IMG/VR virus record: IMGVR_UViG_3300009514_001427
DNA length: 64,000 nt
From: a virus
Direction: 5' to 3' (one strand)
In this document: piece by piece, positions 32,490 to 36,231 of the stretch
Layout: the number at the start of each line of letters is the position of its first letter
Position numbering within the stretch: position 1 is the first letter of the stretch
The notes under the pieces: model-generated
Seen by the model: the letters and a program-made list of their open reading frames with translations, nothing else
What the model was told of the DNA's origin: nothing
Database searches by the model: none
Program-made: the position numbers and the translations under genes

Positions 32490-33149
32490 TTAACCGTTTC
32501 TGAGGCTACGAATAGCTTCGGGATATGCTTCTTTTTCGAGTTCGAAAACTGAGGCTGCTAGTTGATGATGATCCCAAGAAGGATCGATTGTGAGTCGTTT
32601 TTGCAGGATAATGGGTCCCTGATCATACTCGTTATCACAAAAATGCACTGTACAACCGGATTCTGTCTCACCCGCTTCCAAGACAGATTTGTGAACTTTT
32701 TCTCCATACATTCCCTCGCCGCAAAATTTCGGGATCAAGGATGGATGAATATTGATGACGCGATTAGACCATCGATCAGGAATAGGCAGCAAGCTGAGAT
32801 AGCCTGCCAAACAGACGAATTCGGGATGGTACTCCTCAACAAACCTCCACATCGTCTCATGATACTTCGGACTGTTGGCTTGGTAATACGGCAAGCGGGC
32901 TTGGGCAGCATGTGTGAGCCCTGAGCAAGATCTATCGGATACAACGCCCACAACCTCAAAATCTGAGCCTGAGAGATCAATCAGATTCTTGAGGGTTCTT
33001 CCAGATCCGGATATGAAAACGACCAGACGCAAGGGGCTTGGTTCATATATGGGCAGAGCGCATCTTGCCGCAACATTCGCATTGGTCTGTGGTCTTGTTG
33101 AAGACGTGCTTGCATCTTCGTTGCATTTTGATTCGTTGTCGCTCGACAT
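32490..33149 (-). CDS. purN: phosphoribosylglycinamide formyltransferase (GAR transformylase)
   Basis: LVVFISGSGRTL..., NIHPSLIPKFCG, HFCDNEYDQGPIILQ match PurN motifs; 35-aa N-terminal extension. Confidence 0.8.
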   Translation of the reverse strand: MSSDNESKCNEDASTSSTRPQTNANVAARCALPIYEPSPLRLVVFISGSGRTLKNLIDLSGSDFEVVGVVSDRSCSGLTHAAQARLPYYQANSPKYHETMWRFVEEYHPEFVCLAGYLSLLPIPDRWSNRVINIHPSLIPKFCGEGMYGEKVHKSVLEAGETESGCTVHFCDNEYDQGPIILQKRLTIDPSWDHHQLAASVFELEKEAYPEAIRSLRNG

Positions 33150-33220
33150 CCGCCGCTTCAGTTTTGTTTCGGGGCTTAATGCTGTCTAAACGCAACTTCT
33201 TTTGAACTGCATCGCCCATG

Positions 33221-33622
33221 TTATTTTGTGACTGACGCGACCGTTGCTGGACTTCCTGATTCTGTTCCTTCCGAATCTTTATCTCCAACGGAGGAGATGT
33301 CGTCGCCGTTTTCCGTGACTGTCTCAATTGCTGCTGCCGCAGGAGCCTCTGATTGAATTCGGGCGTGTTTGGACTTTCCGCGCCTTCGTTTGCGTTTGCG
33401 CTTGCTGCGACGGAATTCTTCTTTAAGTTCTTTGATCTGTTTGGCAACGTTTCCCACCCCTTCGGTGGCTAGCGCTTCGAGCAATTTGGTGTACCGTTCT
33501 AACCTGCGTAGCCTAAACCAGTTACGAGCGAAGACGGCTGTAGCGAATAGCACCCATGTTGCCAGAATCCATACAAGGATTGGGAACAACGGGCTGCTTA
33601 CCCATAATTCGCCAGTAGTCAT
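33221..33622 (-). CDS. membrane protein with basic/coiled region
   Basis: N-terminal TM helix LFPILVWILATWVLFATAVFA; KRKRKRRRGK tract. Confidence 0.4.
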   Translation of the reverse strand: MTTGELWVSSPLFPILVWILATWVLFATAVFARNWFRLRRLERYTKLLEALATEGVGNVAKQIKELKEEFRRSKRKRKRRRGKSKHARIQSEAPAAAAIETVTENGDDISSVGDKDSEGTESGSPATVASVTK

Positions 33623-33652
33623 AGAACTTCCTCTTTTGCGTCCTCATGTCGC

Positions 33653-35044
33653 CTAAAACTGACTCCAAAGCTGCTGATTGGTTACTTCATGATGGAACAT
33701 CACTTCACCAGCTTTGACGGATGTTCCCAGTCTTCGAGCGCATCGATCAGCGGCTTCCTCTTTCCACATAATATACTTGGCATGCGACTCCGGGCCAAGA
33801 GCATTTCTCATCAACTCACTTTCCCGAAAATGTTGTATGGCCGTGTAGATATTGGATGGCAAAATGTCAGCCATCTTGCCATTCCCATTGCGATTTTTGG
33901 TGCTTCCACCTAGACCTGCCTTGAGAATGGACAAAAGGGCCAAATATGGGTTGGCATCGGGAGCTACGGTTCTTACCTCTATCCGTGCTGACTTTTCGTT
34001 GCCAATTGGAATGCGGACCATTGATCCACGATCCACAGCAGACGCTTTGATCTCGTTAGGAGCCTCGTAATTGGGGTCCAAGCGACGATAGGAATTCACG
34101 CTCGAATTCAAAGCCAGACAAATCTGTTCCGCATGGTTCAAGACGCTGTAGACAAAAGCCCATGCCCCTTCAGAGAGGTTGTTCTCCATAGGTCCGTAAA
34201 AGAGATTCTTGCCGCTGTCTAGATCTTGGAGTGAGATATTCATGTGCATGCCATTGCCGTTCACTCCGACAATCGGCTTGGGCAAGAAACATGCTGTAAT
34301 ATCATTCAAAGCAGCCATTTGGCGGCATATCATTTTGTAAAGTTGAATCTGATCCGCAGCAACTAGCGCTTCGGTATATGACCAATTGATCTCAAATTGA
34401 GATGGAGCAACTTCTGGATGATCTTTTTCGTTCTCGAATCCGCAGTCTCGCTGGACTTCAGCAACCGTGTCTATGAACCGTCGCAACGGACTGCTTGGCA
34501 GCGTGTTGAAATACCCACCCGTGGTCAGATATTCAAATGACCTGTGCTGGTGATAGGTCTTTTCGATGTCTTTGCCTTTGAAAAGGAATCCCTCTATCTC
34601 AGCTGCTACATTGACTCGGTATTTGTTTGAATCTCTCAATTCTGTCAAATAGTCACGCAGCATAGATCTGACATCGCCGCGATAAGCCACTCCATCTTTG
34701 TCACAAATCTCGCCGAAGATGAAAAGCTTCCCTGCGCCGAAGTATTCTGCTGGCAAGTGGTACGTTGCTGCCCAATCCAGTTGGATGCGCAGGTCTGATT
34801 CGTGCTGCGCCGTAAAGCCACGGATCGAGGAGCCATCAAAAGTCAGATTATCTGCTGACTTCAGGAGGAAGTCTTTGTCGTAATCCAACATGTGCAAACG
34901 ACCTTCAATGTCGGAGAAACAAACGGTTACAGCTTTATAATCATCTTGAGCCAGCTCTTGACGAACCGTTAATTCCGCATTGAATTCTGCATCAAAATTA
35001 GCGCGTGCTTTTTTGAAACGAAGATTAGTTTCACGTAAGTTCAT
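33653..35044 (-). CDS. glutamine synthetase family enzyme (GlnA/PuuA-like)
   Basis: CFLPKPIVGVNGNGMHMNISL (GS ATP-binding region), MVRIPIGNEKSARIEVRTVAPDANPYLA matches the GS C-terminal signature. Confidence 0.8.
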   Translation of the reverse strand: MNLRETNLRFKKARANFDAEFNAELTVRQELAQDDYKAVTVCFSDIEGRLHMLDYDKDFLLKSADNLTFDGSSIRGFTAQHESDLRIQLDWAATYHLPAEYFGAGKLFIFGEICDKDGVAYRGDVRSMLRDYLTELRDSNKYRVNVAAEIEGFLFKGKDIEKTYHQHRSFEYLTTGGYFNTLPSSPLRRFIDTVAEVQRDCGFENEKDHPEVAPSQFEINWSYTEALVAADQIQLYKMICRQMAALNDITACFLPKPIVGVNGNGMHMNISLQDLDSGKNLFYGPMENNLSEGAWAFVYSVLNHAEQICLALNSSVNSYRRLDPNYEAPNEIKASAVDRGSMVRIPIGNEKSARIEVRTVAPDANPYLALLSILKAGLGGSTKNRNGNGKMADILPSNIYTAIQHFRESELMRNALGPESHAKYIMWKEEAADRCARRLGTSVKAGEVMFHHEVTNQQLWSQF

Positions 35045-35412
35045 ATCCCAATTCCTTCAATTAGATCTTCTGGCGGTGGCCAGTATTTGTAGACGGGTTT
35101 TCCCGCTTCTTCAGCGAGCCTGATGCTGTGGGCAGTACCTTTGGATTCCCCGTCCCAAAAGGCTATCAGTTCGTCACAGGCATTTACGATTTGCTTGTTA
35201 CGAAGGTAGCCTGCTGCTCTTCCATCTTTGTCCCAATTCGGCAGGAACTCTTTTATTGGTATGCCATTTTCAGCAGCATAGCGTTTAGCAAGCATGTCCG
35301 CCCCTTTTGCTCCGCCGCTGACAATCTGAGTACACGGATGATACTGGAGAATTTTCTTGACAAATTCAAAGTCAGTGAACGTTCGAGATCCAACGATTGC
35401 TAGTTTCATCAA
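35041..35412 (-). CDS. SLOG/DprA-like Rossmann protein (DUF2493-like)
   Basis: MKLAIVGSRTF...VSGGAKGADMLAKRYAAENGIP...RNKQIV..CDELIAFWDGESKGT pattern. Confidence 0.6.
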   Translation of the reverse strand: MMKLAIVGSRTFTDFEFVKKILQYHPCTQIVSGGAKGADMLAKRYAAENGIPIKEFLPNWDKDGRAAGYLRNKQIVNACDELIAFWDGESKGTAHSIRLAEEAGKPVYKYWPPPEDLIEGIGI

Positions 35413-35421
35413 TCATTATAC

Positions 35422-36231
35422 TTAGAATTCGCCTTGAGATGCTAAAAAGACGTTTCGCAGCAAAAGGGCTGTTGTGACAGGTCCCACTCCACCAGGGACA
35501 GGAGTAACATCATTCTTCTCGATCAAGTCTGGATGGATATCGCCTCGCAGCTGACCGTCCAGAATGGAAATGCCCGCGTCTATGAACATCTTCTCCTCGT
35601 AATCACCCTTGATAAAGTGGGGACTGCCTACGGCAGATATGATTACGTCGTTATTAGGGATATGATGGCTGAACAAATCATTCGAGCCAGTATACGCATG
35701 AGTTGTAGTTACTGATGATGCGTGCATGCGCATGAGCAAGTAGCCCAGTGGTTTGCCGACAGCCTTCCCATATCCAACGATAAGGAAGCTGTACTCAAAG
35801 GAATTTTCTAGCACAGATTCGGCAATCTCGGCGCATGCCCTGGCTGTACAGGATACCCGCTTCGGATCGTCATCAAAATCTGTTCCTTCGACTCGCTTTT
35901 CTGGCGCGATTGCTTGCAGGCATTCGTAATGCTGCGGCTCTGGACTGACGACGATAATGCCATCTGCGTCGGAGTCGTTGTACTCGTGAATAATACGAGT
36001 GACGCGCTCTGGAATAGAACGAGAGTGATAATCTTCTTCGACGATTTCGATATTGACTTTTCGTGCTATTTTGCATAGCTGTCTCACATATGAAATAGCC
36101 GATGGATCATCGTAGTTACGCAGAACAGCCAATTTGCCCCCATTTACTCCTTTGAGAACGTTCTTGGCTATTTTGTCACAGTTAATTATTCCCATATAGC
36201 GCAGTCCAATAATCGTTGTTCCCACTGCCAA
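35422..36231 (-). CDS. folD: bifunctional methylene-THF dehydrogenase/methenyl-THF cyclohydrolase
   Basis: VGYGKAVGKPL, DVIISAVGSPHFIKGD, TPVPGGVGPVTTALLLRNV match FolD. Confidence 0.85.
   Translation of the reverse strand: MAVGTTIIGLRYMGIINCDKIAKNVLKGVNGGKLAVLRNYDDPSAISYVRQLCKIARKVNIEIVEEDYHSRSIPERVTRIIHEYNDSDADGIIVVSPEPQHYECLQAIAPEKRVEGTDFDDDPKRVSCTARACAEIAESVLENSFEYSFLIVGYGKAVGKPLGYLLMRMHASSVTTTHAYTGSNDLFSHHIPNNDVIISAVGSPHFIKGDYEEKMFIDAGISILDGQLRGDIHPDLIEKNDVTPVPGGVGPVTTALLLRNVFLASQGEF

Follow-up and report, generated by a model that had tools for sequence, protein, structure and literature searches.

Analysis of a 64,000-nucleotide stretch of viral DNA (IMG/VR record IMGVR_UViG_3300009514_001427; the whole stretch is referred to as the window) revealed a string of six co-oriented genes on the minus strand, occupying positions 32490-36231. 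They encode a protein resembling the folate enzyme FolD, a SLOG protein of the YAcAr type, a glutamine synthetase (GS), two small proteins designated A and B', and the glycinamide ribonucleotide (GAR) formyltransferase PurN. The string appears to be part of a metabolic island of a putative huge bacteriophage, which would raise the supply of two diffusible donors for the purine ring, glutamine and oxidised one-carbon folate, and would also carry enzymes consuming them; the FolD-like protein would perform the dehydrogenase step only. We put the probability of this reading at about 54%.

According to the proposed mechanism, GS would make glutamine from glutamate, ammonium and ATP, and PurN would pass the formyl group of 10-formyl-tetrahydrofolate (10-formyl-THF) to GAR, both activities being predicted from intact residues. 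The FolD-like protein, by analogy with fungal MTD1, would oxidise 5,10-methylene-THF to 5,10-methenyl-THF and go no further; the host FolD or spontaneous hydrolysis would then open the methenyl-THF ring to give 10-formyl-THF. An APRT gene 25 kb away would contribute adenine salvage, and the genes of the string would be expressed together through their co-orientation and translational coupling.

The FolD-like protein and its catalytic residues

Pfam analysis found both FolD domains above the gathering thresholds, the C-terminal domain THF_DHG_CYH_C with 5.5e-28 and the N-terminal domain with only 9.5e-11. The AF2 model of the protein, for which the source gene call is 257 aa, had a pLDDT of 95.3, and its top 50 Foldseek matches were all FolD/MTHFD structures with TMq values of 0.79-0.91 (best about 0.9). 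The best NCBIfam FolD score was 109.5 bits versus a cut-off of 401 bits; the FolD cut-offs span 333-544 bits, and the scores reach about 25% of them.

For a residue survey, 62 members of the clade containing the window protein and 58 cellular-like hits were aligned to what we take to be the human MTHFD1 reference sequence, the numbering of which reproduces Y52, K56, Q100 and D125. Lys56, the catalytic lysine of the Y-x-x-x-K motif, was found in none of the clade members (Leu in 51, Ile in 9, Val in 1 and Ser in 1; the window protein reads SYVRQL), and Gln100 was replaced by Val, Ile, Leu, Cys or Met in 62/62. Leu101 was changed to Ser in 57/62, Asp123 to Arg or Asn in 57/62, and Arg173 to Tyr in every member (62/62). 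Tyr52 was retained in 58 members and is Phe in 4, Gly273 and Gly276 were retained, and Asp125, a pterin-binding residue, was Glu in 61/62, a change also present in 8 of the 58 cellular sequences. The canonical GFHPxNxGRL...PCTP loop was swapped for a shorter, conserved VEGxDFDD...RVSCTAR; the NAD(P) loop GYGKxVGKP was invariant in the clade, and PVPGGVG was also conserved.

The key residues of FolD are Tyr52, Lys56, Gln100, Leu101, Asp125, Gly273 and Gly276, of which Lys56 works with Gln100 in both reactions (PMC3368264). In the K56E mutant, according to a published re-reading of the mutant data, dehydrogenase activity is kept with a Km about 6-fold higher (PMC9173628); in fungi MTD1 has a single activity, and MTHFD1L contains an inactive FolD-like domain (PMC11064299). 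Because all 62 clade members are without Lys56 and Gln100, production of 10-formyl-THF by the window protein cannot be assumed. The protein has the FolD fold but falls outside bifunctional FolD, with Lys56, Gln100 and Leu101 missing and its scores below the equivalog cut-off, and the name "FolD" therefore overstates it. Judging from its residues, this family member most likely works as a dehydrogenase only or has been re-tooled in another way.

An earlier note on this DNA, made from its letters, had read the protein as FolD making 10-formyl-THF, which is unsafe for the same reasons. In the scheme that follows from it, a bifunctional FolD would feed 10-formyl-THF to the adjacent PurN, GS would feed amidotransferases and the SLOG protein would be a nucleotide-binding helper, all parts being enzymes of the classical housekeeping type. 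We regard this as distinctly unlikely: the fold and the Pfam matches agree with it, purF, PurN and GS co-occur in one relative (L006, see below), and a compensating base elsewhere in the pocket is possible, but two of the seven key residues (PMC3368264) are gone throughout the clade, the NCBIfam scores are about a quarter of the cut-offs, and the FolD-like gene persists without PurN in five loci. That the protein is instead a pseudoenzyme without catalysis, serving in regulation or as a scaffold in the manner of the N-terminal FolD-like domain of MTHFD1L and leaving GS, PurN and APRT as the only working enzymes, is quite improbable. Loss of both residues of the catalytic pair would fit such a role, and inactive FolD-like domains have a precedent (PMC11064299); however, GYGKxVGKP, PVPGGVG and Glu at position 125 are kept in a very confidently predicted fold, and the retention of the protein over 37-79% sequence divergence points to selection on ligand binding, and probably on catalysis as well.

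Among the cellular-like FolD hits the Lys56 position was Ile in 17/58 and Gln in 4/58, with Gln100 kept, and some proteins annotated as bifunctional FolD have YVRSI. The phage clade's GYGKxVGKP loop was also found in several FolD genes of Saccharibacteria and other members of the candidate phyla radiation (CPR). Annotation may understate how common FolD paralogues without the Lys are.

Members of the clade were also sought in databases. In GenBank phages, blastn with the region gave no match and tblastn with GS and the FolD-like protein gave only distant hits (≤38% identity), mostly to host-contaminant records. Scans of IMG/VR with the single FolD-like protein, the clade alignment and the GYGKxVGKP DNA pattern found no clade member, the alignment scan being swamped by canonical folD, many of them at the ends of viral contigs. 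Among the matches listed for the PVPGGVG pattern in metagenomes, there were cellular FolD (≤36% identity) and no clade locus. A pattern scan of the GTDB representative genomes gave 49 hits with no clade member; 11 of them were distant FolD (26-31% identity) with the GYGK motif, several from metagenome-assembled genomes (MAGs) of Saccharibacteria and other CPR.

Partners of the FolD-like gene in the window and in related loci

Ten further loci were gathered through exact-protein look-ups. The gene order FolD-like, SLOG, GS was shared by the window and L001, L002, L003, L006, L008, L010, L220 and L221; since the same order recurs in eight other loci of independent assemblies, the arrangement is not due to chance. 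The trio was present in 9/10 loci, the exception being L007, in which the FolD-like gene is accompanied by a DUF4326-YAcAr fusion and an IMPDH/GMP-reductase-like gene takes the place of GS. PurN was located after B' in the window, L006, L008/L009 and L010, which are four distinct contexts (5/11 loci examined). Locus L006 has the order purF, FolD-like gene, NodC-like glycosyltransferase, DUF4326-SLOG, GS, B homologue and PurN; its purF is genuine (TIGR01134 421 bits, cut-off 350) and overlaps with its end the start of the FolD-like gene.

With purF, GS and PurN around the FolD-like gene in L006, the link from glutamine and one-carbon donors to purine consumers recurs, and purine enzymes around this gene in the two most divergent loci are more telling than adjacency. 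The earlier note's coherent nucleotide-supply module is borne out to that extent; the constant partners of the FolD-like gene are SLOG and GS, and not PurN. In two of the relatives, genes for IS605 OrfB/TnpB (Cas12f-like) were found on the opposite strand (4810..5940 in L010 and 9763..11007 in L220), at two different junctions of the FolD-like/SLOG/GS string, which evidently tolerates interruption.

The GS is an intact type I glutamine-synthetase-type enzyme of predicted activity. Its NCBIfam ranking was GlnA (TIGR00653, 268 bits), GSIII (165) and GGputSyn (141); the GlnA score is below the equivalog cut-off (268 vs 429 bits), and the match ends at residue 386, the C-terminal tail being subfamily-specific. 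The closest solved structures were true GSI-alpha enzymes (E about 1e-64), and against the PDB true GS scored 222 bits, the type III ligase 7cql 108 and glutamate-methylamine ligase 84. Alignment of 21 sequences (9 phage-type and 12 cellular) revealed that the catalytic and metal residues E149, E151, E211, E218, H267, R321, R339, R344, E356 and R358 are invariant; mapped by motif, they presumably correspond to Salmonella E129, E131, E212, E220, H269, R321, R339, R344, E357 and R359. Also invariant in these sequences were the ammonium-site residues in FDGSS (D70, S73), GGY (Y178) and YEAP (E327 flap), which distinguish GS from gamma-glutamyl-amine ligases (Asp50', Ser53', Tyr179, Glu327). A gamma-glutamyl-polyamine or other amine ligase, the grouping that the earlier note had named as the refutation of its GS assignment, was rejected on these residues and the scores, and the assignment was upheld.

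Named GS hits among those listed (Acidobacteria, Kouleothrix) were 59-63% identical to the window GS, and an exact-protein look-up of the latter returned no record. In the alignment the phage-cellular identity had a mean of 57% and a maximum of 61%. In a rough neighbour-joining tree, which did not resolve the direction or number of transfers, the cellular sequences form a tight group (82% mean identity) next to phage GS of greater diversity (64% mean identity). The last 30 or so residues (33653..33790; R434, C435...FHHEVTNQxLWxxF), outside the TIGR00653 match, were invariant in the phage and Acidobacteria/Kouleothrix homologues, and this subfamily-specific tail possibly has a regulatory role.

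PurN scored 122.7 bits with TIGR00639 versus a cut-off of 150.1, and this was its best formyltransferase family by a wide margin (PurU 52, Fmt 48). Residues N133, H135 and D176 (E. coli Asn106, His108 and Asp144) as well as S47, G48 and G50 of the N-terminal GxGxxL loop were invariant in 17 sequences. The nearest named cellular matches were from Planctomycetota, with 45-50% identity.

The SLOG protein matched PF10686 with 49.5 bits versus a gathering threshold of 28.2, and its GS(R), SGGAxGAD and KPV motifs were invariant in 9 loci. Other likenesses were at the superfamily level: DprA by Pfam, and the antitoxins ShosA (E 8e-7) and PsyrA (E 2e-4). A single-sequence model (pLDDT 65) matched the folds of ShosA and DprA, again at the superfamily level. 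In jumbo phages, YAcAr and DUF4326 domains have a predicted role in NAD+/ADP-ribose signalling (Iyer et al., PMC7824862), and the toxin countered by ShosA, a DNA-binding antitoxin, disrupts purine metabolism (PMC11961720). Protein A has a transmembrane helix at its N-terminus, a segment rich in Lys and Arg, and an acidic tail; it gave no Pfam hit, and is conserved at 41-46% in L001 and L003 and over a shorter stretch in L002. We propose that SLOG, A and B' are co-expressed passengers or regulators with no demonstrable part in the purine logic. A SLOG protein was correctly placed between the enzymes by the earlier note; the role in purine supply given to it there found no support.

Several observations weigh against a purine-supply island. 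PurN is missing in five loci that keep the FolD-like gene (L001-3, L220 and L221), and purF was found in only one locus, L006. A search of the rest of the 64-kb window, by tblastn with purF and Pfam scans including 36 more open reading frames (ORFs), gave no purF, purM, purL or other family of the purine pathway, so the purM/purL/purF check named in the earlier note had a negative outcome there; the window is 64 kb of a source contig of at least 153 kb, which limits this survey. Since flanking synteny is conserved generally, adjacency alone is weak to moderate evidence of functional coupling; an order of ADP-ribosylglycohydrolase (ARH), CSD, S21 and S8 peptidase genes, for example, was syntenic in L001, L002, L003, L009 and L221. 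Five pocket positions of the FolD-like protein are changed together (K56L/I, Q100V/I, L101S, D123R/N and R173Y) and its loop is rewritten, and the clade may have a different substrate, or no catalysis. Finally, the 64-kb window yielded no gene for a capsid, portal or terminase protein, and the phage assignment is circumstantial.

There is a further explanation, in which the trio and the small zinc-ribbon protein (B') form a separate, undescribed and non-purine module, for example one that makes or intercepts an NAD+/ADP-ribose- or nucleotide-derived molecule for counter-defence, or one for nucleotide modification, and PurN and purF are mere neighbours. The trio is invariant where PurN and purF come and go, and the FolD-like pocket has been remodelled in a clade-specific and conserved manner. 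YAcAr/DUF4326 domains are predicted to be NAD+/ADP-ribose-linked (PMC7824862), DUF4326 is fused to SLOG in L006 and L007, the ARH gene is syntenic nearby, and the nearest defence and solved-structure matches of SLOG include ShosA, the antitoxin to a purine-disrupting toxin (PMC11961720). However, the GS active site is the same as that of cellular GS, with 59-63% identity to the listed named ones, which argues for ordinary glutamine synthesis; the SLOG matches are superfamily-level (E 8e-7 and 6e-3; model pLDDT 65), and no product or target can be named. We consider this module unlikely, though it deserves to be kept in view. In a more specific and rather more doubtful form, the same four genes would make up an undescribed virus-specific pathway, with a FolD-fold dehydrogenase of rebuilt pocket (K56L, Q100V, L101S, D123R, R173Y and the new VEGxDFDD loop) acting on a non-canonical substrate, and a SLOG protein that binds or processes a nucleotide- or NAD-derived molecule. 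If true, such a pathway could protect against host defences directed at nucleotide or NAD pools, or could make a modified nucleotide, and PurN and purF would be accessory.

Gene layout and viral setting

The features of the string and its surroundings are listed in Table 1. The genes named in the earlier note were found to be real and at the right coordinates, all on the minus strand, by their ORFs and Pfam, NCBIfam and PHROG profile matches; two genes between GS and PurN, encoding A and B', had been missed.

Table 1. Positions of the string genes, APRT and nearby signals in the window
Feature	Position	Strand	Length	Basis or remark
FolD-like protein	35422..36195	-	257 aa from ATG 36195	ORF open from TTG 36231; Pfam, NCBIfam, AF2, Foldseek
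YAcAr SLOG protein	35041..35409 (ORF 35041..35412)	-	122 aa	PF10686 3.8e-13; phrog_289 2.3e-28
GS, GSI-alpha-like	33653..35044	-	463 aa	Gln-synt_C 2.3e-72 and Gln-synt_N
Small protein A	33221..33622	-	133 aa	Conserved in relatives; of no established family
Small protein B'	33043..33219	-	At least 58 aa from ATG 33219	Frame open back to 33447; tblastn, translations
PurN core	32490..33032	-	180 aa from TTG 33032	First ORF ATG 33149; Formyl_trans_N 5.9e-35
APRT	61134..61655	-	173 aa	NF002636 and TIGR01090 equivalog scores
Promoter-like site ATGTCA-17-TGnTATAAT	36323..36351	-		10/12 matches; about 130 nt upstream of FolD-like start; consensus match only
Terminator-like hairpin, strong	36785..36826	-		19-bp stem and T run; upstream of gene string

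The ATG of the FolD-like gene overlaps the 3' end of the upstream gene by 14 nt, and its stop is separated by a 12-nt gap from the ATG of SLOG. An ATGA is common to the SLOG stop and the GS start, the 28-nt gap between GS and A holds a ribosome-binding site (AAGAGGA), and the ATG of B' begins one base past the TAA of A. A minus-strand terminator scan from the FolD-like start to the PurN stop found no strong site, only two weak 5-bp stems within genes (36112..36100 and 33955..33939). As the genes are co-oriented and translationally coupled, they are probably co-expressed. The GC content across the string is 0.47-0.48, the same as that of the surroundings. The promoter-like site is weak evidence, since the region holds just as many such sites as shuffling predicts; the strong hairpin would, as a predicted terminator, close the preceding transcription unit upstream of the string. 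The ORF at 36182..36727 (-), which overlaps the FolD-like start, is probably in the same transcription unit as the FolD-like gene; its product is predicted to be secreted, has dockerin/EF-hand-like D-x-D-x-D-G motifs and is without a Pfam family, as is that of the ORF at 38673..40136 (-), likewise predicted to be secreted with such motifs.

Small genes A and B' share about 230 nt in two frames, B being +1 relative to A. Both frames are open in five relatives (L001, L002, L003, L008 and L010), with protein-level similarity in each across the overlap, and B occurs alone with its own ATG in L221, which is without A, and as a longer single ORF in L006 and L007. The arrangement may reflect a genuine overlap of two genes, an internal start codon other than ATG, or programmed +1 frameshifting. 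A single +1-frameshift protein made of A and B' is opposed by the own ATG of B' and by its stand-alone form in L221; on the other hand, close relatives conserve both frames across the overlap. B' matched no Pfam family; its C-terminal zinc-ribbon-like CxH...CxxC motif was kept in L001, L002, L003, L006, L007, L008, L009, L010 and L221.

The unusual 35-aa N-terminal extension that the earlier note had seen in PurN proved to be an artefact. The first ATG of the PurN ORF falls 107 nt inside B', so that codons 1-39 overlap B' in the other frame, and the same MCST...PTSK peptide is encoded in L003, a locus without PurN. The extension was therefore rejected as a real domain or signal, being an alternative frame of the conserved B'. 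Cellular PurN proteins start no more than about 12 aa before the first beta-strand. The TTG at 33032, located 10 nt past the B' stop, would give a normal N-terminus and has no obvious Shine-Dalgarno sequence; in relatives, the sole canonical PurN start is an ATG formed by the His-Val codons of B'. Either ATG 33149 or TTG 33032 may be the PurN start.

The APRT gene of the earlier note was confirmed at the position given there, and lies 25 kb from the string; the protein passed the equivalog cut-offs of NF002636 (236.6 bits, cut-off 125) and TIGR01090 (216.9 bits, cut-off 185.85). It stands alone between tRNA-Pro genes, and the neighbouring ORFs are without Pfam families.

The window contains 16 tRNA genes without rRNA, several HNH endonucleases, a bS21 gene (71 aa, 16458..16673, -) adjoining a cold-shock protein gene (region 16458..16899), and an RF-1/PCRF-type release factor at 63320..64000 (-) that runs off the window end. 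Most ORFs are without a Pfam family, and for several the sole matches are PHROG families of unknown function. Contigs of 557 kb and 580 kb carry close relatives of the GS. Huge phages commonly carry tRNAs, S21, release factors and purine/pyrimidine biosynthesis genes (PMC7162821), and on this circumstantial evidence the setting is a putative huge bacteriophage.

A cellular origin, with the region belonging to a bacterial or archaeal chromosome or plasmid and the genes being ordinary housekeeping genes, is very improbable. It would fit the lack of capsid and terminase hits in the window, the absence of clade members from the IMG/VR and GenBank phage searches, and the deposition of one relative contig as a Promethearchaeota MAG; but the tRNA genes are dispersed and without rRNA, most ORFs have no Pfam family and several are PHROG-only, huge phages typically have HNH homing endonucleases, stand-alone bS21 and RF-1 (PMC7162821), and of the four enzymes all except APRT are below or far from the cellular equivalog scores. 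The contig in question, L001 (JBSWQT010000001.1, 557 kb, GCA_054390495.1), is deposited as Promethearchaeota (Asgard) and carries the same island together with bS21 and a cold-shock protein. Its label is probably a binning error, since bS21 and RF-1 are bacterial-type and the nearest named relatives of PurN are from Planctomycetota, and L001 is probably a mis-binned huge bacteriophage genome.

Further genes of the window were recorded. The tRNA genes span 38324..62781, all on the minus strand, single or in pairs among ORFs, and include 4 Ser, 3 Arg and 3 Pro isoacceptors. The ORF at 18530..29956 (-) encodes 3808 aa, and parts of it match far shorter genes at the same position in L002 (1024 aa) and L003 (270 aa), so this locus is highly variable in length. 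A 585-aa protein encoded at 30654..32411 (-) has a stretch of about 110 residues that is nearly pure serine; its gene and PurN are missing at the matching position in L001 and L002, where a homologue of 30111..30506 comes directly after B'. The 875-aa product of the ORF at 48132..50759 (-) is a homologue, full-length-sized, of the eukaryotic major vault protein (MVP), with Pfam matches to MVP_shoulder (1.7e-23), Vault_3 and the Vault repeat, and phmmer matches to rat and human MVP structures (E about 6e-27, residues 499-792). An AAA ATPase gene (51181..52404) lies about 400 nt upstream of it, and a 159-aa ORF (50775..51254) is situated between the two. Such a homologue is unusual in a putative huge phage.

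Relation to known systems and significance

Purine genes in huge phages have already been reported (Al-Shayeb et al. 2020, PMC7162821), and 247 huge phages have been reported to carry 248 GS genes (bioRxiv 10.1101/2025.02.27.640493, Huge Phage Genome Collection); GS is also present in moraphages (PMC12619734) and mudflat large phages (PMC13172472). The window resembles these auxiliary gene sets of huge and jumbo phages in being a large phage-like genome with many tRNAs, S21, a release factor, and GS and purine genes that resemble those of hosts and are presumed to keep up the supply of nucleotides. It differs in its conserved, translationally coupled string, in which GS is joined by a YAcAr SLOG protein and a FolD-like protein without the Lys. 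We found no description in the literature of a uniformly Lys/Gln-less FolD-fold clade or of its fixed coupling to YAcAr SLOG and GS.

With bifunctional FolD/MTHFD the FolD-like protein shares the two-domain fold, the Gly-rich NAD(P) loop, Tyr52, an acidic residue at 125 and PVPGGVGP, whereas its clade is without Lys56 and Gln100 and has the folate-side loop shortened and rewritten. Fungal MTD1 and the MTHFD1L domain are similarly divergent members of the FolD family that have lost the cyclohydrolase activity (MTD1) or all activity (MTHFD1L), so the scaffold tolerates such loss (PMC11064299); the likeness to MTD1 is functional and by analogy, no MTD1 chain being among the 50 fold or 26 sequence matches listed.

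The GS has the metal, glutamate, ATP and ammonium-site motifs of GSI-alpha (Bacillus/Listeria GlnA, PDB 4lnf and 7tdv) and, like it, no adenylylation loop. Unlike those enzymes it carries the distinct FHHEVTNQxLWxxF tail common to an Acidobacteria/Chloroflexi subfamily, and it is about 34% identical to what we take to be the B. subtilis GlnA sequence. PurN is, like the product of the cyanophage purN and purine auxiliary genes (phrog_9240), a phage-borne GAR formyltransferase with intact catalytic residues, but belongs to another lineage and is located after GS and the small genes, not in a T4-like cyanophage context. The SLOG protein has the Rossmann-like domain and GSR...SGGAxGAD motif of YAcAr, DprA and ShosA proteins, and YAcAr is known in jumbo phages (PMC7824862); in contrast, it is stand-alone, 122 aa long and free of Macro, NADAR or DUF4326 fusions, and lies between two metabolic enzymes.

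The string offers a concrete case for huge phages rebuilding nucleotide metabolism, with enzymes predicted to produce donors beside their first consumers, purF in a relative and PurN in the window. It also defines a 62-member viral clade of the FolD fold in which the catalytic Lys/Gln pair is uniformly lost and which is yet strongly conserved. The automatic annotation of this clade as "FolD" is probably wrong, and metabolic reconstructions that assume 10-formyl-THF from its members should be treated with caution.

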